Position numbers and translations under genes: made by a program. The notes under the pieces were generated by a model that had not been told where the DNA came from, did not search any database, and was given only the letters and a program-made list of their open reading frames with translations. DNA of 38,470 nt from a virus. The stretch is from the IMG/VR virus record IMGVR_UViG_2919289632_000001. One strand, given 5' to 3'. Numbering within the stretch: the first letter of the stretch is position 1; each line of letters begins with the position of its first letter. Shown here piece by piece: positions 1 through 38,470 of the stretch.

Positions 1-25
1 TGGTTCGAGTCCAATCGCGCCTACC
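1..25 (+). repeat. attL core = 3' end of a host tRNA gene
   Basis: tggttcgagtccaatcgcgcctacc is identical to 38446-38470. It reads as a T-loop (GGTTCGAGTCC), 3' acceptor strand, discriminator and CC(A). The isotype cannot be told from this fragment. Confidence 0.85.
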
Positions 26-82
26 ATCTTTCTCCCTCTTGACGAGACCAGCGTCAGGAACCTACGGGAGATTTATGGGAGA

Positions 83-1437: not shown

Positions 1438-1685
1438 GGTCCTGCACCTCCTGCAGGTTCTCGTTCGACCTGCAGCTTCCGGATGGCGTTCACCTTTCGG
1501 AGCGCGCGCTTGGACTGCGCCAGGCGCTGGCGGTCAGCCTCAATCTGCTCGGATGTGAACTTGCCTTCATCTCTATGCAGATCCCGGGTGGCGCGGTACA
1601 TGTCGCCTTGGGCCTGCACCGCGTACCAGAGAGCAACGGTGTCGTCTTTGGTGAGCTGCAGTGGCCCTGTCGCTGCTCTTTTCAT
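1434..1685 (-). CDS. Hypothetical protein (83 aa)
   Basis: The in-frame ATG at 1685 (MKRAATGPLQL...) gives an ATGA overlap with the methyltransferase stop. The longer 122-aa track ORF would overlap that gene. No domain recognised. Confidence 0.6.
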   Translation of the reverse strand: MKRAATGPLQLTKDDTVALWYAVQAQGDMYRATRDLHRDEGKFTSEQIEADRQRLAQSKRALRKVNAIRKLQVEREPAGGAGP

Positions 1686-2140
1686 GCTGCAAACCTCCTC
1701 GCAATGGCCTGCTGCTTCACCATGCGGTCGTAGAGGAGCACGTTCGCCGCCGCACCCAGGTTCATGCAGTAGCGAGTGGGCACGTAGACCACATGCCGAC
1801 ACTGGCGCACCACGTCGGCAGGCAGGCTGCCATCTTCCGGACCGAGCAGGTAGTAAGCGCGCTCTGGGTGGGTGAACTGGGGCAGCGGCGTGGCCGTGTC
1901 GATGAACTCCACCGCCACCGGCTCGGCTCCGAATGGCGTGGCAGCCAGCAGGTCGGGCACGATCATGGTCGGCATATGCTTCCAGGCGTCCTGCGTGTCA
2001 GTCCGGGACCGCTCGAAGCGCTCACTCTCCAGCGCCACCATGCTGACGCCGTAGCAGCCGGCGGCGCGCATGATCTCTCCCACGTTCAAGCGGTTTTTTG
2101 GCCGATGCAGGCCCAGTGCGGCGAATCCTCGGGGGCTCAT
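1682..2140 (-). CDS. SPOUT (SpoU/TrmH/TrmL-type) RNA 2'-O-methyltransferase
   Basis: 152 aa with the three knot motifs: NVGEIMRAAG, YLLGPEDGSLP and VYVPTRYCMNLGAAANVLLYD. ATGA-coupled on both sides. Confidence 0.85.
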   Translation of the reverse strand: MSPRGFAALGLHRPKNRLNVGEIMRAAGCYGVSMVALESERFERSRTDTQDAWKHMPTMIVPDLLAATPFGAEPVAVEFIDTATPLPQFTHPERAYYLLGPEDGSLPADVVRQCRHVVYVPTRYCMNLGAAANVLLYDRMVKQQAIARRFAA

Positions 2141-3682: not shown

Positions 3683-4759
3683 TCAAAGCCTCCCCTTAAA
3701 GCCGTTCTGCAGCTGGGCCAACGTGGCCATCGGCGCGTCGCCGTGCAGCTGTGCTGCGTGATAGACGATCTCAGAAAGGACGACGATGCGAGCCATGACG
3801 CCGTGCACGACAGGGTGGGTTTCTGCAGCGCTGGTCTGTTCGGAGATGGTCTGCATAGCCTGGGCCAGCGATTGAATCTCGTAGCAAGCGGCGCGCGCGC
3901 ACTCCCGGAAATCCGCCAAACGGCTTGCTTCCTCCGCAGCCGCGCTCGGGGCCGGTGGGCGTGGTGCGCCAGGGTCGCAGCAGTCTTCAATGCACCCCGT
4001 GATAGACCGCAGGTGCTGTTCAACCTGCACCAGCAGAGCCCTCCGCTCGTTCGATTCAGAGTCACCAGGAACGAGGCGAGCAGCGCGGATAAGCGCAGCG
4101 ATGTCGAAGGCGACTCGATCAATGTCTACACCCGTTGGGGGGCGAATATAGGCTTCATCTGCAAGCCCGTGGGCAAGCCGGATGAGTCGATCAGAGTCAG
4201 CGCTCCAGTCGTGATCTTCTTCCGTTGCCTGGGCGTGGTTCAGCAGGTACTCGACCTGACCAAACGCAACCTGAATCGCGTCCTTCGGTGGGTCCTTGTC
4301 CAGCTCGGTGCTCAAAGCACTGGGAAGCATGGCGCCCAGTACCTGATCGCCAAGGCTGTCTTGAATCTCATCGAGAGACGTGTGAAAGTTACGCAGTGAA
4401 GGAAGCAGAATCAGGTTTGCATCCTTGGCTGATTCGGCGATGGCGGCCGCCCCTTGCACAAATGCCATAGGCCGGAACATCGCTGTGTACGCCTCATCAG
4501 TTATTTCGCTGGTGAGGGGGCGCACACCGATGTTTTCTGCGATCTTGCCCAGTAGGCTGCTGGCTTCGTCCAGAAGGGTTCCAACGCTCGCCAGATCGTT
4601 TACCGCGAGGTCGGCCAAAGCCTTGGCCCTGGCTGTCGCCTCGGAAAGATCCACAGCCAGTGCATTGGCTAATCCCTCCCATCCATGCCCAGTACCGATC
4701 TCTGGTGCGGCAACGGGCACGGCGGACGCTTTGCTGGCTGGTTCGAGGACGGCATTCAT
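3683..4759 (-). CDS. Hypothetical Ala/Leu-rich helical protein (358 aa)
   Basis: Full-length track ORF, ATGA-coupled at both ends. No catalytic motif recognised. Confidence 0.8.
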   Translation of the reverse strand: MNAVLEPASKASAVPVAAPEIGTGHGWEGLANALAVDLSEATARAKALADLAVNDLASVGTLLDEASSLLGKIAENIGVRPLTSEITDEAYTAMFRPMAFVQGAAAIAESAKDANLILLPSLRNFHTSLDEIQDSLGDQVLGAMLPSALSTELDKDPPKDAIQVAFGQVEYLLNHAQATEEDHDWSADSDRLIRLAHGLADEAYIRPPTGVDIDRVAFDIAALIRAARLVPGDSESNERRALLVQVEQHLRSITGCIEDCCDPGAPRPPAPSAAAEEASRLADFRECARAACYEIQSLAQAMQTISEQTSAAETHPVVHGVMARIVVLSEIVYHAAQLHGDAPMATLAQLQNGFKGRL

Positions 4760-5904
4760 GCTTCACCAGCCTTCCCGAGATCCACGAAGTTTGGACCGAA
4801 GTTCCAGCGGTCATGCCCGCCCAGTATGGCCTCGCCTGCGGCCGTGTCCACCATGCCTCCGCAATGACGCGAGAGCGCCTGTGCTGCGTCTACTAGCCCG
4901 GCCAGTGCCCAAGAATCCTTCTCTGTCTGAGCCTGCATCAGGATGTTGTCGATGGTCGCAAGGTTGCTCGCGGCCACTTCCAGCACGCTAAGCAACTGTT
5001 TTCGCGTGAGGGCGGCCGGACCCACTTCTTCAGAATCGTCTTTCACCCGCCGGATGGGAGGAGTTGGGCGGTCGCGAAACTGCCGAGCTCCAGCGTCGAT
5101 TGCGGCTGCCGCGACATCGTTGGCGTTCAGTTCGCAGTCGTAGCTCAAGCCTGCATTGTTGAGAACCTGGTGTGCCGCATCAATAAGCTGATGGCGATGC
5201 CTGGCCGATGGGTGATCGCGCTGCTCGATGGCAAGAGCCCCGGCACACGCTCCAGCAGCGTAGAAAAACGCCTCCTGCACTGTGCCCATTCGTAGACTGC
5301 CATCAACTACCTGCTGGAGCACCTTCTTGCCGAACTCCAACAACGTCGAAGCGTAGACCGCACCAACCTCGTCATTGATGAGGCCGGCAGCCTGTGACAA
5401 CAACGCCGCTGTGTTGGCGGCGATGGCCAGTTCCTCTTTGGCTGCCGTGCTGCGCTGTCCTGCACGGATGCCTTCGGCCATAGCTTCGCAGCCTTCTTCT
5501 TCAAAGCTGTATCCGTTGGAGGCCGTTCGCAGGGATTGATGCACCACTTCCAAAGGGGCAATCGCGGGACTTCCTTGGCGATCTGCCCGCTCTACTGCGA
5601 GGGCCCCGTACACAGCTGCGGCAGCTTTGTGGATGGCACGTTCGCAATCTTGCGGGGCCTCAAGGTCATCCGCAGCAGTGTGGAGCAACTCAGCGCCGTT
5701 GACGCTCATTTGCATGCTGTGCATGTCATAGATGACCCGCAACTGCTCAGCCAGCGTACTTGCGACCAGCGCCTCGTCCGAGGAGATTGCTCCTGGGGCC
5801 TCTGCCTCTTGCGTAGGCGTCGCCTGGGTTGTCGCCGGAGGCTTTCCGGCCCGCTGTGATGGCTTGGTTGCGCGCACAGGCGCGCCTACGGTACATTCCG
5901 TCAT
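4756..5904 (-). CDS. Hypothetical protein (382 aa): Pro/Thr/Gln-rich N-tail, then a helical body
   Basis: Track ORF with AAGGAAA 6 nt upstream of ATG 5904. It is the first large gene of the coupled leftward chain. Confidence 0.8.
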   Translation of the reverse strand: MTECTVGAPVRATKPSQRAGKPPATTQATPTQEAEAPGAISSDEALVASTLAEQLRVIYDMHSMQMSVNGAELLHTAADDLEAPQDCERAIHKAAAAVYGALAVERADRQGSPAIAPLEVVHQSLRTASNGYSFEEEGCEAMAEGIRAGQRSTAAKEELAIAANTAALLSQAAGLINDEVGAVYASTLLEFGKKVLQQVVDGSLRMGTVQEAFFYAAGACAGALAIEQRDHPSARHRHQLIDAAHQVLNNAGLSYDCELNANDVAAAAIDAGARQFRDRPTPPIRRVKDDSEEVGPAALTRKQLLSVLEVAASNLATIDNILMQAQTEKDSWALAGLVDAAQALSRHCGGMVDTAAGEAILGGHDRWNFGPNFVDLGKAGEA

Positions 5905-9651: not shown

Positions 9652-9692
9652 CACTTACGGTGTTTGTTGCGCAAATTATTTTCTGCGGTGTT
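9633..9692. promoter_or_regulatory. OL-like operator repeats
   Basis: CGGTGTT occurs at 9633-9639, 9658-9664 and 9686-9692. GGTGTT-N10-AACAC at 9634-9654 has the same geometry as the cI/cro operator. Confidence 0.5.
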
Positions 9693-10450
9693 CAGATTCG
9701 TTCGCTCTGTCGGTGCACCACTCGGCCCAAGATGATGCAATGGGCATCGGAGCATTCCTTGCGTGGATAGCGCCGCTGGTCTGGATTGTCGGATGTCATC
9801 CACCAAGTTGCCGCGTCGCGCTGTAGGCGCTTCACGACTGGCTCACCTTCGAAATTGAAGGCAAAAACCTCGCCGTCTTTGGGCTCGGTATCTTCCGTAT
9901 TGATCACCACCACGTCGTCATGAAATAGGGTTGGCTCCATGCTGTGGCCGTGGATCTTTATGGCGATGAGCTTGTAAGGCTTGAAGCCTCTGCGTCGCAG
10001 CCAGTCCGTTCGAAAGAAGATCGGCGCCGCTTCCGTTTCGTCCACATCCACAGCAAAACCGCTGATGCCCGCTCGAAGGGTGAGGCGGACGACCCGCACC
10101 GGGGCCAAGTCTGCATGCAGGTCCATGTCAACGGGAGCTATCGGTGAGGGCAGCTGATCCCCAGGATTGATTGCCGCCGCGATTTCTCTCGCCTCCGCTG
10201 CGAGGCGGGGGCTGAACTCTTCTAGGGCCACGCCCAATCCGCGAGCGAAACCCCGCCCCGCCTTCAAGGACAGAGGCGAGCGCCCGCTTAAAAAGTTGCC
10301 AACGGCACTTTGCCCGCCGATGCCATACATCTCGCCAAACACAGCCTGGGGCGGCTTGTGTGGCGTCGCCTCCCAAATGGACCGGAGTTTCATTGCCTCA
10401 GCCAAGTGCTCGGCGTTGACGCGTGAATTTCTTGAAGAAGTTGGGGACAT
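9692..10450 (-). CDS. cI: CI-type repressor (HTH plus S24 LexA-like autopeptidase)
   Basis: 252 aa. The N-terminal HTH is QAVFGEMYGIGGQSAVGNFLSG. The C-terminal S24 motifs are GHSMEPTL and VVKRL. Confidence 0.95.
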   Translation of the reverse strand: MSPTSSRNSRVNAEHLAEAMKLRSIWEATPHKPPQAVFGEMYGIGGQSAVGNFLSGRSPLSLKAGRGFARGLGVALEEFSPRLAAEAREIAAAINPGDQLPSPIAPVDMDLHADLAPVRVVRLTLRAGISGFAVDVDETEAAPIFFRTDWLRRRGFKPYKLIAIKIHGHSMEPTLFHDDVVVINTEDTEPKDGEVFAFNFEGEPVVKRLQRDAATWWMTSDNPDQRRYPRKECSDAHCIILGRVVHRQSERI

Positions 10451-11087: not shown

Positions 11088-11624
11088 ATGACCATTGCTC
11101 TTGATGCCCTGAACCGCGCCATCGATGCGCTGCCCGGAGGCCGGCCAGTGGTGGCCGTGCGTCTGAACAAGACGATTGAGGTGCTGCGCAAGGAGCTCTC
11201 CCCGGCGAGCTCGCACAAGCTGGGCGCAGATGACGCCATCGCCATTGCCCGCATTTGCGTGGAGGCGGGCAGCCCGCATGCCTATGACTACGCCCAGGCG
11301 GTAGCCGCTGAGTGCGGTGGTCGCTTCGAGTACGGAGAAGCAGCCCCGCACGCGGCAAACCCCATGGAACGCATTAGCGACCTCATGAGAGAGACCAGCG
11401 ATGTGACTGGCACGTTCATCGAGGCCATGGCCGACAGCCGCATCAGCGACAACGAGCTGGAGCGCATCGAGCGCGAGATCTGTGAGGCTGAGGCGGTCTT
11501 GTCGGCGCTGCGCCAGGCCTCACGCCGGATCAACGCTGCCGGCAAGCCGCGGGCCGCAATGATCGATCTGCCAGTGATCGATCGCATGCGCGCGGAGGCC
11601 CCCGGGCCTGTGATGACGGCTTGA
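11088..11624 (+). CDS. CII/CP76-like regulatory protein
   Basis: ATG 11088 has GGAGA 7 nt upstream. ADSRISDNELERIEREICEAEAVLSALRQ resembles the phage CII-type regulator family. Its position after cro fits. Confidence 0.7.
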   Translation: MTIALDALNRAIDALPGGRPVVAVRLNKTIEVLRKELSPASSHKLGADDAIAIARICVEAGSPHAYDYAQAVAAECGGRFEYGEAAPHAANPMERISDLMRETSDVTGTFIEAMADSRISDNELERIEREICEAEAVLSALRQASRRINAAGKPRAAMIDLPVIDRMRAEAPGPVMTA

Positions 11625-11780
11625 TTTTTGGCGCCACGGCTAGGGTAGCTCCCGAAAAGCAGACTCACCACCTGCCTGCCGCTGGTTTCCTCGTGGTGTG
11701 AGGAAGGGTGATCCCATGTCCCAACTGAAGTCACGCCAGCGCTCGAACATTTCTGCTGCTGGTGCATGGAGGCGCGTCGG

Positions 11781-12410
11781 ATGAGCAGACGCGGAGACCC
11801 TCCGAAGAAAGATCCTCGTGGGCAGCATATGCGGCTCTACAAGGACACCTTTGAGTCACACGCATGGGCATGCCTCAGCGGTGGGGCCAGAGACGCTTAT
11901 TTGGCCCTGCTATTGCAGAAGGGCAGCACGAATAACGGCGACCTGTCTCTTCCGATCACTGTTGCACGCAGATACGGCATCAAGAGCGAAGCCACGCTGG
12001 CAAAGGCACTGCGAGAGCTGTGCTCCGTTGGTCTCCTGGCGATATCTCGCAGAGGCGGCAGCACAAAAGATGGCCGCCGCCAAGTGAACCTATACCGCTT
12101 CACCGACTACGAGGTTTTTGAGAACCCCTCGAAAAACATCGAGGCCTGTAAGCCCACCAACGAGTGGAAGTTGATCAAGACGCTTGCGATGGGGCGCCAA
12201 GCGATTCAGCGGGGCGAAGAGGAGGCTGCAGCCCGTGCCGCAGAAAAAAAAGTCCTACTTCAAAAAATGAAGGGAACCACTTCAAAAAATGAAGTGGTAG
12301 AGCCGAAAACCACTTCAAAAAATGAAGTGTGGGCTGTCGCACCACTTCAAAAAATGAAGCTGGCTCATGGCCCGCCAATTGACGCAAAGCCTTGTGCAGC
12401 AACGGCTTGA
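11781..12410 (+). CDS. Replication initiator (winged-helix, lambda O-like role)
   Basis: ATG 11781 (MSRRGDPPKK) is ATGA-coupled to a 22-codon leader ORF; an alternative ATG lies at 11766. The core is ARDAYLALLLQKGSTNNGDLSLPITVARRYGIKSEATLAKALRELCSVGLLA. Iterons lie inside its 3' end. Confidence 0.7.
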   Translation: MSRRGDPPKKDPRGQHMRLYKDTFESHAWACLSGGARDAYLALLLQKGSTNNGDLSLPITVARRYGIKSEATLAKALRELCSVGLLAISRRGGSTKDGRRQVNLYRFTDYEVFENPSKNIEACKPTNEWKLIKTLAMGRQAIQRGEEEAAARAAEKKVLLQKMKGTTSKNEVVEPKTTSKNEVWAVAPLQKMKLAHGPPIDAKPCAATA

Positions 12411-13107: not shown

Positions 13108-13499
13108 TGCTGGTGCTGTCTACAAACCCGCGCGGAACCCGCCGGGCAACCCAGCGAGAACCCGGGGAGAACCCACTGGGTTTTGCAACGGTCCCGAAAA
13201 CGGAACCCATCCCAAAAGCGGCACCGGTCCCGAAACTGGGACTGTTGCGCTGCCAATTTGTCCGTGTCCCTGAGGACATCGGCCGGACAGGGCAGGGACA
13301 GGGCGGGGACAAACCGGGCGTGTCCTCGCTTTTCCGGGCGAATTCCGCCGGAAAGCTTGCGGAATTCCTGGAGTCGGCCACCACCACCTGGGCGGAAATC
13401 CGCCGCCACTGCCGAGGAATTCCAGAACCAAACCCTTGCGCAAAGCCTTCGCTGAAGCCTTTCTCCTACCCATACCCAAAGCACCATGACCACCACTGA
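13107..13499 (+). CDS. Hypothetical Pro/Gly-rich protein (130 aa)
   Basis: The start overlaps the upstream stop (TGATG). GC3 is about 70%. The sequence is repetitive (GGTCCCGAAAAC/GGTCCCGAAACT; GGGCAGGGACAGGGC). Coding status is uncertain. Confidence 0.4.
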   Translation: MLVLSTNPRGTRRATQREPGENPLGFATVPKTEPIPKAAPVPKLGLLRCQFVRVPEDIGRTGQGQGGDKPGVSSLFRANSAGKLAEFLESATTTWAEIRRHCRGIPEPNPCAKPSLKPFSYPYPKHHDHH

Positions 13500-14184
13500 A
13501 TCGACACGGCCCACCATCAGCGAGCGCTTGGCCAGCGCTGCAAACAGTTCCGACCTGTCGGTGCAGATCGACAAGCGAGGCGATGCTGACTACCTGATTG
13601 CGGCCGGCTGCACCCCGGCACGTCTGGGGCGGCACGTCTTCCAATTGATGGCCGAGTGGGATGCCTGCGCGAAGCCGCGGCCAGTGACGCCAGCGGACAT
13701 TGAGCGTTTGGCTGCCGAGCTGCCGCGCATCAAGGCCACCAAGCAGACCAAGCGGGGGGCGCAGGTGGTGGAGATGCTGGATTTGGTGGGGGCTCAGGCG
13801 AAGTACGGCGAGTGGCTGGAAGGCGAGCGCCGCCGTGTTCTCGGCAGGCTGAAGAGCCTGCAGCCGCTCATGGACGCGCATGCGGGCCTGTTGCCTTGGG
13901 TGGTAGGGCGGGGCTATCAGAACGCTGCGCAAAAGCTGCTGGACGTGTTGGGGTGGTGGGCGGACCGGCGCTGCCAAACGTGTCACGGTACTGGCGAGAG
14001 GGAAGGGCGCCCATGCAAGCGCTGCAAGGGATCTGGCGAGCGCCCCATTCCCCACGGACAGGAGGGGCAGGCGATCAGTGAGCACATCGCGGCGCACGTT
14101 GATCGGGCCCGGGTCGGAACGCGGAAGGGCTTGCAGGGCATGCGAAAGCTGAAAGCATTTGCAGCTGGCGAATCTGCGTGTTAG
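13486..14184 (+). CDS. DnaJ-type zinc-finger protein; candidate late-gene regulator by position
   Basis: 232 aa with CQTCHGTGEREGRPCKRCKGSG (two CxxCxGxG units). It is the last gene before the terminated leader and the late operon. Confidence 0.8.
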   Translation: MTTTESTRPTISERLASAANSSDLSVQIDKRGDADYLIAAGCTPARLGRHVFQLMAEWDACAKPRPVTPADIERLAAELPRIKATKQTKRGAQVVEMLDLVGAQAKYGEWLEGERRRVLGRLKSLQPLMDAHAGLLPWVVGRGYQNAAQKLLDVLGWWADRRCQTCHGTGEREGRPCKRCKGSGERPIPHGQEGQAISEHIAAHVDRARVGTRKGLQGMRKLKAFAAGESAC

Positions 14185-14300
14185 ACTGCGGTCCTACAGC
14201 GCAGGCGCATTGAAACCGCCTAGCCATCATCGGCGATTGGCCCCCGGGCGGTGAGTCCGGATCGGCAAAACATCGATGGAGTGGTGCGCTCTGAAATTCC

Positions 14301-14337
14301 AAACCCGCAAGGTTCGTCCTGCGGGTTTCGTCGTTTT
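14301..14337 (+). terminator. Intrinsic terminator-like hairpin
   Basis: A 9-bp stem AAACCCGCA / TGCGGGTTT (14301-14309 / 14320-14328) with a 10-nt loop, followed by CGTCGTTTTT. Confidence 0.65.
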
Positions 14338-14412
14338 TGCACCTTGGAGCAGCGGTAGCTCGGCGGGCTCATAACCCGAAGGTCGGCGGTTCAACTCCGT
14401 CAGGTGCAACCA
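14338..14412 (+). tRNA. tRNA-Met(CAU) with initiator-type features
   Basis: 75-nt cloverleaf. Acceptor TGCACCT/AGGTGCA; D-arm GAGC-AGCGGTA-GCTC; anticodon arm GCGGG-CTCATAA-CCCGA; variable loop AGGTC; T-arm GGCGG-TTCAACT-CCGTC; discriminator A; encoded CCA. Confidence 0.9.
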
Positions 14413-14505
14413 AATGCCGCTCTAAGCGGTGTCGCTCGTTGCTGATGTTGGGGCCTGGACTTGCGATCCTCGGCCAGTAATTGAGGCTACTTCAGGTCCG
14501 CCTAC

Positions 14506-14700
14506 ATGAGCACTTTCAACACCAAGCCCGTTGGAGTCCAGGGCGTGATGATCCCGAAAGGGGTCGAGATCAGCGTCTGGAGTGATGGCGAATGGCGCCC
14601 TATCGGCAAGACGCTCAGCCATGTGCGCCCAGCATTGCGCAGGGATCGCAGTCGCACCGTGTGGGGCCTGAAGCGAGGACGCCGCGCCTCGCGCAAGTGA
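14506..14700 (+). CDS. Hypothetical small basic protein (64 aa)
   Basis: GC3 is about 80% in frame, but no clear SD is present. Confidence 0.5.
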   Translation: MSTFNTKPVGVQGVMIPKGVEISVWSDGEWRPIGKTLSHVRPALRRDRSRTVWGLKRGRRASRK

Positions 14701-14855
14701 ATCCGACCCCGAAGCCCGGCAACCAGCGCTGGCCCACCAGGGGGAAGTGGTGGGGGGGATCCCTCCGAAAGCTCGGTGCTGGGAAGCGTAGGCAGCTGCC
14801 AGCAGGGCCAGGCTAAGCCCTGTAGTCCGATGGCAGCACATCACATGGATGCAGC

Positions 14856-15098
14856 ATGGAACTGGAATACACCCGCGTCGAGTCCTTTGAAGTGAAGGGC
14901 ATCCGCTTCACCTGCGTTTCCAAGTGGAACGGCATGGAGGAATGGAAGGACGACAAGGGCCGCAAGATGATCGTTGCGCGTGGATACGAAGGCGGCTTCG
15001 CTGCGACGTTCCAGCAGCTGTTCGGCGATTCGATAGCTCCCGGAACGCTGCGCGTGATCTCCGCCGCTCCTGATCTGATTGCGCTGCTGAAGGCCTGA
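14856..15098 (+). CDS. Hypothetical protein (80 aa)
   Basis: Track ORF with a natural-looking composition, closely followed by the next gene. Confidence 0.75.
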   Translation: MELEYTRVESFEVKGIRFTCVSKWNGMEEWKDDKGRKMIVARGYEGGFAATFQQLFGDSIAPGTLRVISAAPDLIALLKA

Positions 15099-15100
15099 AC

Positions 15101-15346
15101 ATGGAAACCGTCTCCTACCAGCGCATCAGCGACGCCAAGCCCACTCACATCATCACCGCCTGCGAAGACTCCGACACCTGTCCGGGCTGCGGCGCTGGGT
15201 ACAAGGTGGGGCTGAGCGCCTGCGAGTATTGCCGCCGGCCTGTGCGGTTCGCCGCCGGCAGCTTGGTGCCAAAGGAAATGCTCGCCTGTGTGCACATGGG
15301 CGAGGCGATCATCCCTCGAATGCTGGATGAGCGGTTTCGAGAATGA
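15101..15346 (+). CDS. Hypothetical zinc-ribbon protein (81 aa)
   Basis: CPGCG...CEYC motif. The stop overlaps the HNH gene start (ATGA). Confidence 0.75.
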   Translation: METVSYQRISDAKPTHIITACEDSDTCPGCGAGYKVGLSACEYCRRPVRFAAGSLVPKEMLACVHMGEAIIPRMLDERFRE

Positions 15347-15684
15347 AGACGCCGCCCCGCCTGAAGACTATCAAGCCCCGACTCGCCCCCCTGGCCGTCG
15401 CTCCCGTCCGGACTTTGACCTCCAAGGCCGGAGCATCGGAGCGCGTGAGGGGGAACGTCTGGGCCCGCATCCGCAACCAGGTGTTAGTCCGGGATGCATA
15501 CACCTGCCAGGGCTGCGGACGTGTATCAGCCGACAACGAGGTGGATCACATCAAGCCGCTGGAGCAGGGAGGCCACCCGACAGCACTTTCCAACCTGCAG
15601 ACCTTGTGCAAAGGGCCGGACGGATGCCATACGAAGAAGACGGCCCGAGAGGCAGGGAAACGGGCAAAGGGGTGGGGCGGGTGA
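15343..15684 (+). CDS. HNH endonuclease (terminase-associated)
   Basis: CQGCGRVSADNEVDHIKPLEQGGHPTALSNLQTLCKGPDGCHTKKT. It lies immediately upstream of the terminase genes, as in HK97-like phages. Confidence 0.9.
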   Translation: MKTPPRLKTIKPRLAPLAVAPVRTLTSKAGASERVRGNVWARIRNQVLVRDAYTCQGCGRVSADNEVDHIKPLEQGGHPTALSNLQTLCKGPDGCHTKKTAREAGKRAKGWGG

Positions 15685-15793
15685 AAAGTCTGGAGGCCGC
15701 GAAGTCAGGAAACCCCGCCGTTTCCCACGCGCGCCAAAAACCCCTTGTTTGATTCCCTGAGCGGGGGAAATCAAAGAATCAAAGGAATCAAAA

Positions 15794-16204
15794 ATGCCCC
15801 GAGGTGGTTCACGACCTGGTGCAGGGCGCAAGCCCAAAGCCAAGCCGCAGGACGCACCAGCGGCAAAACCGGTGGTGGATGCCGCCGGATTCAAGACGGA
15901 CGCGGCGCCCGAGAACTGGCCGTTCGGCAAGGAACCGCCGAAGGAGCCCGATCCGCCCGAAGACCTGAGCAAGATGACTCCGTTGGAGTTCCTGTTGAAG
16001 GTCATGCGAGACGAGGACGAGGACAAGGGCCGACGCATGCAAGCCGCATCCCTGGCGGCCCCGTATTGCCACCCCAAGAAGGGGGAGAGCACCAAGAAGG
16101 CCGAGGCCGAAGAGAAAGCCAAGGCTGCAGGGTCTGGCCGGTTCGCAACACGCAAGGGTCCACCAGGGCCGCAGCTCGCGGCAGCGGGAGGTAAGAGGGT
16201 CTGA
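15794..16204 (+). CDS. terS: Terminase small subunit
   Basis: 136 aa. The N-terminus is MPRGGSRPGAGRKPK, and MTPLEFLLKVMRDEDEDKGRRMQAASLAAPYCHPK is typical of small terminases recalled from high-GC proteobacterial (Burkholderiales-type) phages. Its position fits. Confidence 0.7.
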   Translation: MPRGGSRPGAGRKPKAKPQDAPAAKPVVDAAGFKTDAAPENWPFGKEPPKEPDPPEDLSKMTPLEFLLKVMRDEDEDKGRRMQAASLAAPYCHPKKGESTKKAEAEEKAKAAGSGRFATRKGPPGPQLAAAGGKRV

Positions 16205-16206
16205 AC

Positions 16207-17958
16207 ATGGAATGGAGCACGGCCTGCAAGGACTGGGAGCGCCGCATCGTTGAGCGTGAGCCGCTGATCCCCTTTGCGCCCTTGTTCCCCGACATGGCCG
16301 ACGAGGCTTGGGATGTTTTCAGCCACCTTGTGATGGTGGACGTTGACGGCCAGCCGACGATGGGCGAGATCTGCCTGCCCTGGCTTGAGCATTGGGTCCG
16401 GGCGATCTTCGGCGCGCGGCACCCGGAGACAGGGCGGCAGCTGATCAATGAGTTCTTCCTCATGGTCAGCAAGAAGAACGGCAAGTCGAGCATTGCGGCA
16501 GGCGTGATGCTGACCGCGCTGATCCTGAACTGGCGCCCCTCGGCCGAGCTGCTGATCCTCAGCCCGACCAAGGAGATCGCCGAGAACAGTTTCAAGCCGA
16601 TCCGCGACATGATCAACGCGGACGAGGAGCTGCAGGCCCTGCTGAAGGTGCAGGAGTACCAGCGGCTGATCACCCATCGCGAGAACCAGGCCACGCTGAA
16701 GGTGGTGGCGGCAGACAGCGACACGGTGTCGGGCAAAAAGGCCAGCTTCGTTTTCGTGGATGAGCTCCACGAGTTCGGTAAGAAGGCCAAGGCCTCCAAC
16801 ATGCTGCTGGAGGCCACGGGCGGCTTGGCGTCGCGCCCCGAGGGGTTTGTGATCTACGCCACGACGCAGAGCGAGCAGCCACCGGCCGGTGTGTTCAAGG
16901 ACAAGCTGGACTACGCCCGCAAGGTGCGGGACGGAGAGATCGAAGACCGGAAGTTCCTCCCGCTGATCTACGAGTTCCCGCAGGCCATGCTGGCGGCCAA
17001 GGCCCACCGGGACCTGAACAACGCCTATGTGACCAACCCGAACTGGGGCACGTCGGTCGATATCGAGCGCATCACCCAGCTGCACAGCCAGGCGCAGGCG
17101 CTGGGCGAGCAGCAGTTCAAGGAATTTCTCGCGAAGCACCTGAACGTCGAGATCGGCATGAACCTGCACAACGACCGTTGGGCGGGGGCGGACTTCTGGG
17201 AGACACAGGGCACACGCCCAGGCCTGACCCTGCAGAACCTGCTGGACGAGTGCGAAGTGATCGACGTTGGTATCGACGGCGGCGGCCTGGACGACCTGCT
17301 GGGCTTGGCGGTGCTGGGCCGCAGGCGTGAGCAAGAAGAGGTGTTCGTGCTGGAGTACACGGACCCTGAGACGAATGAGCTTGTGCCTGCGCATTGGGCG
17401 ACGGTGCAGCGCTGGCTGCTTTGGACCCGGGCATGGGCGCACCCCTCTGTGCTGGAGCGCCGCAAGGAGATCGCCCCCCGCCTACTGGACTTTTCCAAGC
17501 AGGGGCACCTGGTGCTGGTGAAGAACGTGGGCGAGGACACGGCGCAGCTCGCGAAGCTGGTGAAGCGGTGCGAAGACTCTGGCCTTCTGGACCAGGTGGG
17601 CTGTGACCCGCTGGGCCTGGGCGGTGTGCTCGATGCCCTTGCAAAGGAAGAGGTCCCGCGCGAAAAGATCGTGGGCGTGCCCCAGGGCTACAAGCTGCAC
17701 AGCGCCATCAAGACCGGGGAGCGAAAGCTCGCCGAGGGCGTGTTGGTGCATGGGGCTCAGCCCCTGATGGCCTGGTGCGTTGGTAACGCCCGCGTGGAGG
17801 CCAGCAAGAACGCGGTGATCGTGACAAAGCAGGCATCGGGCACCGGAAAGATCGACCCGCTGATGGCCACATACAACGCCATCACCCTGCTATCCCTCAA
17901 CCCTGAAGGCGTCGGACTCAACCTGGACGACATCCTCGCAAACCCATTGATTGCCTAA
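16207..17958 (+). CDS. terL: Terminase large subunit
   Basis: 583 aa with a Walker A-like VSKKNGKSS and the layout of the Terminase_1 family. Confidence 0.95.
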   Translation: MEWSTACKDWERRIVEREPLIPFAPLFPDMADEAWDVFSHLVMVDVDGQPTMGEICLPWLEHWVRAIFGARHPETGRQLINEFFLMVSKKNGKSSIAAGVMLTALILNWRPSAELLILSPTKEIAENSFKPIRDMINADEELQALLKVQEYQRLITHRENQATLKVVAADSDTVSGKKASFVFVDELHEFGKKAKASNMLLEATGGLASRPEGFVIYATTQSEQPPAGVFKDKLDYARKVRDGEIEDRKFLPLIYEFPQAMLAAKAHRDLNNAYVTNPNWGTSVDIERITQLHSQAQALGEQQFKEFLAKHLNVEIGMNLHNDRWAGADFWETQGTRPGLTLQNLLDECEVIDVGIDGGGLDDLLGLAVLGRRREQEEVFVLEYTDPETNELVPAHWATVQRWLLWTRAWAHPSVLERRKEIAPRLLDFSKQGHLVLVKNVGEDTAQLAKLVKRCEDSGLLDQVGCDPLGLGGVLDALAKEEVPREKIVGVPQGYKLHSAIKTGERKLAEGVLVHGAQPLMAWCVGNARVEASKNAVIVTKQASGTGKIDPLMATYNAITLLSLNPEGVGLNLDDILANPLIA

Positions 17959-38339: not shown

Positions 38340-38445
38340 GCGCGGGTGATTCTTTTGGGTGAAAACAGGGGAATCAAGGGGAAAACAGGGGTGATTTTCC
38401 TGCCCGCCGCCCTGTAAGGCGTTGATCCATCTGGCTCAAAATTAT

Positions 38446-38470
38446 GGTTCGAGTCCAATCGCGCCTACCA
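38446..38470 (+). repeat. attR core (phage-borne copy of the tRNA 3' end)
   Basis: Identical to 1-25; the printed last line may carry one more A, which would make it 26. The preceding bases are TATGG, not ATTGG, so this copy cannot form the T-stem. Confidence 0.85.

Follow-up and report, generated by a model that had tools for sequence, protein, structure and literature searches.

Lambdoid Stx phages carry tRNA genes downstream of Q, PR' and tR', such as ileZ-argN-argO of phage 933W, and these genes encode rare-codon elongator tRNAs. The initiator tRNA of E. coli is encoded by metZWV and metY in a host tRNA operon setting and has a C1xA72 mismatch at the end of its acceptor stem. Its mutant T1 (C1 to U, giving U1:A72), attributed to Seong & RajBhandary 1987, reportedly remains active in initiation while also acquiring EF-Tu binding and the activity of an elongator. 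Engineered U1-A72 initiators of E. coli and Aquifex also initiate efficiently in vivo, and their authors suspect a stronger binding to EF-Tu (PMC11822699). Van den Berg et al. remark that tRNA-fMet is generally missing from the tRNA sets of phages, which avoid it (PMC10264068); phage or prophage genes of this type, though uncommon, are already documented. They have been tabulated for the phiLM21-like prophages of Sinorhizobium meliloti (PMC12429752) and described for Komagataeibacter phage phiKX1, Aeromonas phage AP1, and huge phages (PMC10747093), and the GenBank record of Caulobacter phage CcrSC carries the note 'tRNA-fMet' for a tRNA with U1:A72, G2:C71, and C3:G70. Bacterial initiator genes with U1:A72 were noted in 2006 (PMC1635315). 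Given these precedents (PMC12429752, CcrSC), the novelty of a phage tRNA-fMet was overstated in an earlier reading of the present locus, referred to here as the first-pass annotation.

The window, which is the whole stretch of 38,470 bases analyzed here, is one prophage of Acidovorax delafieldii (GCA_031458055.1, where it lies on a 700-kb contig, as identified by exact protein look-ups), with identical copies in other assemblies. Its first 26 bases (TGGTTCGAGTCCAATCGCGCCTACCA) are an exact terminal direct repeat of its last 26, and the window therefore spans the entire prophage from attL (1..26, +) to attR (38445..38470, +). In sequence, the repeat resembles the 3' terminus of a tRNA gene of the host, with a partial tRNA covariance model (CM) match at 1-23. 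Pfam and PHROG searches identified an integrase, a CI-like repressor, an HNH endonuclease, a terminase, an HK97-type portal, and a prohead protease, of which the tyrosine integrase (83-1258) and the CI-like S24 repressor (9692-10450) lie on the minus strand. The rightward early genes include CII-like and O-like genes. The methionine tRNA under study occurs once in the window, 14 kb inward from attL, and is prophage-encoded as the first-pass annotation had proposed. It was also considered as the attachment tRNA and rejected, since the att repeats at 1-26 and 38445-38470 derive from the 3' end of a different tRNA. The locus resembles the described phage and prophage carriers of tRNA-fMet in having a single initiator-type tRNA in a tailed phage, and the phiLM21-like elements are likewise temperate prophages, of about 50 kb. 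It differs from the known carriers in its host clade (Comamonadaceae) and in its placement directly 3' of a leader terminator, which is not described for other phage tRNA-fMet genes; it differs from the E. coli initiator genes, which belong to a host operon, in lying inside a prophage.

The first-pass annotation had suggested an ARAGORN run, and this program, applied to the whole 38,470-base window, called one tRNA only, a tRNA-Met(cat) at 14338-14412 on the plus strand. Rfam was concordant, with an RF00005 match to tRNA-Met at 14338-14409 (60.2 bits, where the gathering score is 29; E = 9e-11). In the ARAGORN cloverleaf, all seven acceptor pairs are Watson-Crick (U1:A72, G2:C71, C3:G70, A4:U69, C5:G68, C6:G67, and U7:A66). 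The D stem GAGC/GCUC contains A11:U24 and G12:C23 and closes a D-loop of 7 nt, while the anticodon stem GCGGG/CCCGA consists of G27.A43, C28:G42, and the triplet G29-31:C39-41 below the loop CUCAUAA. The variable loop is AGGUC, the T stem GGCGG/CCGUC has one G.U pair, and the gene ends with discriminator A73 and an encoded CCA. Apart from that G.U pair, G27.A43 is the sole non-standard pair noted. The cloverleaf is intact, the conserved tertiary positions are all present, and the sequence is identical in at least five assemblies. The folding energy of the cloverleaf (-27.1 kcal/mol) lies 1.8 kcal/mol above that of the minimum free energy structure (-28.9 kcal/mol), an unremarkable gap for a tRNA sequence without modifications. 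Each of the initiator hallmarks listed earlier for 14338-14412 was found in the cloverleaf and the sequence.

To place this CAU tRNA, we aligned it jointly with the E. coli CAU tRNAs metZ/W/V, metT, and ileX, taken from annotated genome records; in these, metZ/W/V form a tandem of three tRNA-Met genes flanked by mltA and amiC. Over positions 8-65, the window tRNA is identical to the initiator metZ at 53/60 positions (88%), to ileX at 37/60 (62%), and to the elongator metT at 30/60 (50%). Between positions 10 and 48, there are just two differences from metZ: the D-loop lacks 2 nt, and U27 is changed to G, which gives G27.A43 in place of U27:A43. The T stem has G50.U64 instead of U50.G64, and only 6 of 14 acceptor-stem positions agree, with U1:A72 in place of C1xA72 and with A4:U69, C5:G68, C6:G67, and U7:A66 where metZ has four G:C pairs. 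Shared with the metZWV/metY initiator are the anticodon CAU, the loop CUCAUAA, A73, G29-31:C39-41, A11:U24, G12:C23, G2:C71, C3:G70, and the variable loop AGGUC. The alignment thus agrees with the earlier statement that the tRNA nearly matches E. coli tRNA-fMet from the D stem to the variable loop and departs from it in the acceptor and T stems. A blastn search against 5,426 complete E. coli genomes returned a median of 4 matches per genome, which equals the number of E. coli initiator genes, and the match inspected falls in metZWV, the group of three tRNA-Met genes that mltA and amiC enclose. Judged by this count per genome and the one inspected match, the E. coli matches are confined to the initiator loci.

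Published criteria point in the same direction. In a classification of 1,070 bacterial CAU tRNA genes, Silva et al. wrote of A11-T24 and G12-C23 that they 'seem to be complete discriminators of fMet', described R29G30G31..Y39C40Y41 as the anticodon-stem feature conserved in tRNAfMet, and found that in 1.5% of 457 bacterial tRNAfMet genes A1-U72 or U1-A72 replaces the C1-A72 mismatch, 'probably not affecting the formylation' (PMC1635315). By these criteria, the window tRNA is therefore a tRNA-fMet gene of the rare U1:A72 class. It contains the G:C triplet at 29:41, 30:40, and 31:39 exactly as in E. coli metZ, the formyltransferase (Fmt) determinants G2:C71 and C3:G70, and the MetRS identity elements CAU and A73; at 1:72, where an initiator is expected to have no Watson-Crick pair (C1xA72), it has U:A. 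The features of an elongator tRNA-Met (Py11:Pu24, no GGG/CCC, U4:A69, A5:U68, and a strong 1:72 pair) are contradicted by A11:U24, GGG/CCC, A4:U69, C5:G68, and U1:A72, respectively.

We also built a covariance model (CM R1) whose training set combined E. coli metZ with 66 unique initiator-like tRNAs found on viral (IMG/VR) contigs, the window sequence being left out; the training tRNAs were chosen by an identical anticodon arm, with no constraint on their D arm, T arm, or acceptor stem. The first-pass annotation had held that covariance models favoring elongator Met or Ile would speak against its reading. On CM R1, a model that leans to the initiator reading because its training set was selected by the anticodon arm, the E. 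coli initiators scored 96.5 bits, the window tRNA 80.5, ileX 65.3, and metT/metU 58.5. A tRNA-Ile2, in which TilS would turn C34 into lysidine so that AUA is read, deserves consideration because mislabeling is common among CAU tRNAs, and the acceptor stem of the window tRNA agrees with that of E. coli ileX at 10 of 14 positions, C5:G68 included. However, the window tRNA carries A4:U69 and not the C4:G69 of tRNA-Ile2, its A11:U24 and G12:C23 are the fMet discriminators (PMC1635315), its body is closer to metZ (88%) than to ileX (62%), and ileX lies 15 bits below it on the initiator model, which makes this identity extremely improbable. Analysis of the blastn matches, the alignment identities, CM R1, and the criteria of PMC1635315 bore out the initiator-type assignment, and on these sequence comparisons the window tRNA is a descendant of a bacterial initiator.

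Comparison with the canonical initiator acceptor stem (CGCGGGG/CCCCGCA) revealed that the window tRNA departs from it at five of seven pairs. The pair U1:A72 stands where the canonical tRNA has a C.A mismatch, and pairs 4:69, 5:68, 6:67, and 7:66 are changed on both strands with Watson-Crick pairing retained, while 2:71 and 3:70 are unchanged. Because pairs 4-7 changed in a compensatory manner and 2:71 and 3:70 were kept, the tRNA appears to be under selection for structure and Fmt recognition and does not look like a decaying copy; the pattern is the one expected of a tRNA so selected. We examined how common these states are in a comparison set of 67 unique initiator-like tRNAs (66 from IMG/VR contigs and E. 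coli metZ), whose cloverleaf is well supported, with 95.9% of cells paired and 13 double-change pairs against 8.2 in shuffles. In this set, 2:71 is G:C in 64/67 and 3:70 is C:G in 64/67, and the 1:72 position is unpaired in 48, weakly paired in 17 (A:U in 7, U:A in 7, U.G in 2, and G.U in 1), and G:C in 2. Being present in about one in ten of these tRNAs (7/67), U1:A72 is a recurrent natural state; beside the CcrSC tRNA, at least seven U1:A72 examples occur in IMG/VR contigs, some of them within phage tRNA arrays. Measured against the 67 tRNAs, pairs 5-7 (C:G, C:G, and U:A) of the window tRNA are rare or unique and its G27.A43 is unique, A4:U69 replaces the minor Fmt determinant G4:C69, and the acceptor stem as a whole is the most divergent among the phage initiator tRNAs compared. 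T1 and the engineered U1-A72 initiators (PMC11822699) have the same weak Watson-Crick closure, but they are laboratory mutants on an E. coli or Aquifex backbone, whereas the change in the window is natural and the acceptor stem has been rebuilt.

The paired 1:72 end raises the question of whether the tRNA serves initiation, elongation, or both. When position 1:72 of the E. coli initiator is closed by a Watson-Crick pair, Fmt acts on the tRNA poorly, so that it is less formylated and takes part in elongation, and the C1-A72 mismatch shields fMet-tRNA from peptidyl-tRNA hydrolase (PMC6393288, citing Seong & RajBhandary 1987). These statements, the stronger EF-Tu interaction suggested for engineered U1-A72 initiators (PMC11822699), and the seven Watson-Crick acceptor pairs of the window tRNA would suit a dual-use or mainly elongator methionine tRNA, in which U1:A72 permits EF-Tu binding, the main effect is more internal AUG decoding, and initiation is optional. 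We consider this unlikely. The retained G:C triplet, A11:U24, G2:C71, and C3:G70 would make no sense in a pure elongator, and the similarity of the tRNA body to the elongator metT is just 50%. Moreover, a U:A pair is weak, genes with U1-A72 or A1-U72 probably still yield formylatable tRNAs (PMC1635315), and the engineered U1-A72 initiators initiate efficiently (PMC11822699). Since 1:72 is paired, a partial escape from formylation is possible for a tRNA that otherwise works as an initiator.

The tRNA gene directly follows an intrinsic-terminator-like hairpin (14301-14328), which together with its U-rich tail, UUUCGUCGUUUU(U), occupies 14301..14337 on the plus strand. The last U of the tail (UUUCGUCGUUUUU) is position 1 of the tRNA. 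The hairpin folds with -16.1 kcal/mol (z = -3.3) and is kept with compensatory changes in 17 aligned relatives; a simple terminator scanner skipped it because of one internal mismatch. Upstream of it lies a conserved non-coding promoter-like and leader module (14159..14300, +), recognized from alignments and covariation. It comprises a -35-like TTGCAG (14159-14164), a -10-like TAGACT (14182-14187), for which most relatives have TATACT, an invariant CCTAnAGCGCAGGCGCA box (14193-14209), and a conserved hairpin around GGCGGTGAGTCYGG (14240-14266) with two covarying pairs, all on the plus strand. In an alignment of the sequence downstream of homologues of the preceding gene, the approximately 180 bases from the stop codon of the preceding gene to the terminator hairpin are conserved above the level of coding sequence. 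The module is present in L218-L224, and a pattern search with its conserved part retrieved 18 further IMG/VR contigs, all 18 of which have the same gene end upstream of it. An Rfam search of the module gave no family match, and a sigma-70 promoter scan of 13400-15400 gave no site at 9/12, the promoter-like motif in the window matching the consensus at 8/12 positions. From its arrangement and conservation, the module is probably a late promoter with a leader RNA.

The preceding gene (13486..14184, +) encodes a zinc-finger protein of 232 aa with a CxxC...CxxC pattern and a weak Pfam DnaJ_CXXCXGXG match. It closes the early-right operon and in every case stands before the conserved module, which follows it in at least 22 related phage contigs. 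The family is confined to Comamonadaceae phages, and its four cysteines are invariant among homologues. We examined the protein as a Q-family antiterminator and rejected this assignment. Pfam, PHROG, and NCBIfam searches gave no antiterminator match, and its AF2 model (pLDDT 90) had no PDB neighbor at E <= 0.001 in Foldseek. The resemblance to Q is one of position only, and the protein is a putative regulator in that sense. As in the lambdoid layout, the last early gene is separated from the late genes by a short, conserved leader that ends in an intrinsic terminator. The locus shares with the lambdoid Stx phages a tRNA cargo between a late regulator with a leader terminator and the late genes, and would likewise share antitermination-linked expression; it differs in that the Stx phage tRNAs are elongators and that its own regulator candidate has no detectable sequence or fold similarity to Q. 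The order of regulator gene, promoter, leader, terminator, and late genes would thus be like that of lambdoid phages as a functional analogy only.

On the 3' side of the tRNA, a same-strand run (14506..17958, +) contains three small ORFs (14506-14700, 14856-15098, and 15101-15346), an HNH endonuclease (15343-15684), the small terminase (15794-16204), and the large terminase (TerL, 16207-17958), the last three assigned by Pfam and PHROG, and the portal and protease follow. A scan of the plus strand from the tRNA to the HNH gene found no terminator-like site. The first-pass annotation had placed the tRNA at the head of the late operon. As a position this is well supported by the sequence, because the leader and terminator lie 5' of the gene, the late genes lie 3' of it, and no plus-strand terminator intervenes; late, antitermination-dependent expression of the tRNA would follow by analogy with the lambdoid phages.

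Comparison with related phages indicated that the tRNA is not part of the conserved module. In 22 copies of the module, each inspected over 330 downstream bases, a tRNA 3' of the terminator was found in the window only (1/22). No tRNA was present in eight retrieved loci from the window's 90%-identity TerL cluster, and none was found downstream in seven retrieved loci of zinc-finger gene homologues. Among 80 prophages with TerL at 53-86% identity, 6/80 carry a standard tRNA 1-2 kb upstream of the terminase, differing from case to case. L002, from an Acidovorax metagenome-assembled genome (MAG) and the closest TerL relative in a scan of species-representative genomes, has in the same slot another initiator-like tRNA with C1xA72, the three G:C pairs, C11:G24, and the loop UUCAUAC (C32U and A38C). 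In a Shinella MAG (L065), a tRNA-Met with U1:A72 and A11:U24 heads a four-tRNA array (Met-Trp-Thr-Pro) 3' of a terminator-like hairpin. The slot holds a non-initiator CAU tRNA in an Oxalobacter relative (L038) and tRNA-Gly or tRNA-Leu in three others. Judged from these comparisons, the slot upstream of the terminase serves as a site for cargo, and the tRNA is an accessory gene outside the core of the phage lineage. It is sporadic cargo, since the module occurs elsewhere without it and close relatives lack it, and it is dispensable for the phage, since every close relative examined does without it.

The sequence itself is also rare. The 39-nt tRNA core had no match in IMG/VR, and the pattern of the tRNA body with the acceptor stem left free matched one IMG/VR sequence and one metagenome sequence, each with a different acceptor stem. 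In the phage collection, the window tRNA had no close sequence relative, and none of the phage records resembled the region, the tRNA itself excepted. Phage records that match the tRNA number 52 of 50,697 at E <= 1e-5, many of them jumbo phages, and it is this rarity of initiator tRNAs among phage tRNAs that gives the window its relevance. More than 120 IMG/VR contigs contain the canonical initiator anticodon arm; in some it surely belongs to host sequence flanking a predicted prophage, and in others it lies within a phage tRNA array.

Such a distribution might be produced by a neutral or decaying hitch-hiker, that is, a tRNA gained by illegitimate recombination into the variable post-terminator slot, with no selected role. 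The absence of a tRNA from relatives with TerL identity of at least 90% and from those sharing the upstream gene agrees with this idea, as do the near-uniqueness of the exact body lineage in public sets (the one IMG/VR and one metagenome match), the G27.A43 mismatch, and the unrelated cargo in the same slot of other phages. It is nonetheless rather improbable in view of the intact cloverleaf with its conserved tertiary positions and CCA, the four acceptor pairs altered on both sides with none broken, the formyltransferase determinants held while their neighbors changed, and the identical sequence in at least five assemblies. For a functional initiator as such, the unfavorable points are the Watson-Crick U1:A72, A4:U69, the unique G27.A43, the absence from close relatives, the 8/12 promoter, and the lack of a Q-like fold.

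A protective role had been suggested as well, in which the tRNA replaces or outlasts host tRNA-fMet that is cleaved or modified by a toxin, either of the VapC type or an acceptor-stem-directed enzyme. The general hypothesis that phage tRNAs counter tRNA-depleting defenses has been published (PMC10264068), the strongly remodeled acceptor stem could evade a factor that reads this stem, and L002 carries in the same slot an initiator-like tRNA with the changed loop UUCAUAC (C32U, A38C). On the other hand, van den Berg et al. report that, where tRNA-fMet is the target of VapC, phages mostly do not carry a gene for it (PMC10264068), no host toxin is evident from the present data, and late expression would come after an early abortive response. 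Resistance to VapC-type nucleases is not supported: because positions 28-42 are identical to those of the canonical initiator, a nuclease acting at the anticodon stem-loop would cut the window tRNA too, and the gene could only add supply. VapC is said to cleave between A38 and C39 (Winther & Gerdes 2011). The window tRNA keeps A38, and the L002 tRNA has C at this position. Taken together, a spare tRNA against host defense is quite unlikely.

The SpoU-family (SPOUT) methyltransferase gene (1682-2140, -) had been proposed to act on the tRNA, but we found no link between them; the gene lies 12 kb away on the opposite strand, in the leftward, integrase-proximal region of the prophage, and belongs to a very large TrmL-like family. 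Its product has a Pfam SpoU match, weakly resembles the methyltransferase domain of TARBP1 in a PDB search, had no match in NCBIfam and PHROG searches, and falls below the NCBIfam TrmL model. The family comprises more than 1,300 small SpoU proteins, auto-named TrmL by JGI. Both the anti-toxin and the SPOUT ideas are without support.

Our preferred reading is that the gene specifies a functional, phage-carried methionine tRNA that derives from a bacterial initiator, is made with the late transcript, and feeds the initiator pool, and from the sequence evidence we give it a probability of roughly 0.57. Most likely, the tRNA would be the first product of the late transcript, adding to the initiator pool and perhaps partly serving as an elongator tRNA-Met. 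The tRNA would be produced only on readthrough of the upstream terminator, that is, upon antitermination in lytic growth, and RNase P and 3' processing would release it from the transcript. MetRS would then charge it by means of CAU and A73, and the host enzyme would formylate it through the formyltransferase elements G2:C71, C3:G70, and A11:U24. The three G:C pairs of the anticodon stem would serve P-site and IF3 selection, so that the tRNA would enlarge the initiator pool during late protein synthesis; such an initiator supply role is plausible. A fraction of the tRNA may evade formylation, bind EF-Tu, and serve elongation too.

The tRNA gene itself brings little that is conceptually new. 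A speculative extension, to which we give a low probability, is that the rebuilt acceptor stem may be an adaptation that provides a phage-private initiator with altered partner specificity, or a deliberate dual function in initiation and elongation, in both cases switched on through antitermination of the late operon only. If true, the phage would have a private initiator that is still charged and formylated, yet unseen by a host factor that recognizes tRNA-fMet through its acceptor end, and the evaded reader could be a toxin, an acetyltransferase, or peptidyl-tRNA hydrolase. The leader/terminator module and its orphan-fold zinc-finger partner may be the more useful by-product, as by sequence and position they look like an undescribed late-control system of Comamonadaceae phages. 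The prophage also offers a clean natural system for asking whether initiator supply limits phage protein synthesis and how a paired 1:72 end behaves in vivo.

The window is a complete prophage, spanning attL to attR and inserted in a host tRNA gene. A 26-nt exact direct repeat (TGGTTCGAGTCCAATCGCGCCTACCA), which matches the 3' end of a tRNA gene, occupies both ends of the window (1-26 and 38445-38470), with the integrase adjoining attL and with no intact tRNA preceding the right-hand copy (38445-38470). Inside these borders, the gene at 1682-2140 (-) encodes a small methyltransferase of the SpoU family (152 aa), which has more than 1,300 homologues, many of them on phage-sized contigs. These homologues are automatically named TrmL by JGI; the protein itself falls below the level of the NCBIfam TrmL model, and its top PDB sequence match is the methyltransferase domain of TARBP1 (E = 0.005). 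An int-alpA RNA (Rfam RF02996; 11633-11703 (+)) scores 41.2 bits, above the gathering score of 35.8, and lies between a CII-like gene (11088-11624) and an O-like replication gene (11766-12410).

The region upstream of the initiator-type tRNA encodes a 232-aa zinc-finger protein (13486-14184) with four invariant Cys residues, which is restricted to phages of Acidovorax, Delftia, Ottowia, Comamonas, and Variovorax. AlphaFold models the protein with confidence (pLDDT 90, pTM 0.79), and the PDB contains no neighbour of this model at E <= 0.001. The protein, which resembles Q in position only, may be an orphan-fold late regulator. After the zinc-finger gene, a conserved non-coding module (14159-14337) recurs in 22 or more phage contigs of the Comamonadaceae type, including the loci L218-L224, which carry homologues of this gene, and the IMG/VR contigs L225-L242. 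Promoter-like boxes and the invariant CCTAnAGCGCAGGCGCA are accompanied in this module by a hairpin around GGCGGTGAGTCYGG that shows covariation, and by an intrinsic terminator. A search of Rfam gave no family for this segment, which could be a late-promoter/antitermination leader or a small RNA. Comparison of the sequences following the terminator revealed TTTTTGCAGCTCG in the tRNA-less relative L218 and TTTTTGCACCTTGG in the window (14334-14341); the palindrome TGCA, which forms the first four bases of the window tRNA, is therefore common to the tRNA start and the tRNA-less backbone. The common TGCA may be a trace of the tRNA insertion junction, or else may have arisen by chance.

The same slot holds other tRNAs in related prophages. 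In an Acidovorax MAG prophage (L002) whose TerL is 86% identical, it is occupied by a different initiator-like tRNA (4856-4931), which shows the initiator-type features C1xA72, G2:C71, C3:G70, and three G:C pairs, and departs from them in C11:G24, U27.C43, and the anticodon loop UUCAUAC (C32U, A38C). This loop is therefore altered at the position reported as the VapC cut site in tRNA-fMet. A Shinella MAG prophage (L065) carries a Met, Trp, Thr, and Pro tRNA array (3915-4234) with a terminator-like hairpin directly 5' and the terminase downstream, an architecture identical to that of the window tRNA, which likewise stands right behind the terminator and before the terminase. The tRNA-Met, first in the array, has U1:A72 and A11:U24, and its anticodon stem contains A29:U41, G30:C40, and C31:G39.

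Analysis of 66 unique initiator-like tRNAs from IMG/VR contigs with the initiator anticodon arm (L082-L201) indicated that G2:C71 and C3:G70 are almost invariant and that 1:72 is C.A in just 22 of the 66. The other states are C.U (8), U:A (7), A:U (7), U.U (6), A.A (4), A.C (3), U.G, U.C, and G:C (2 each), and G.A, A.G, and G.U (1 each). The diversity at 1:72 in viral contigs seems to be greater than that reported for bacterial genomes.
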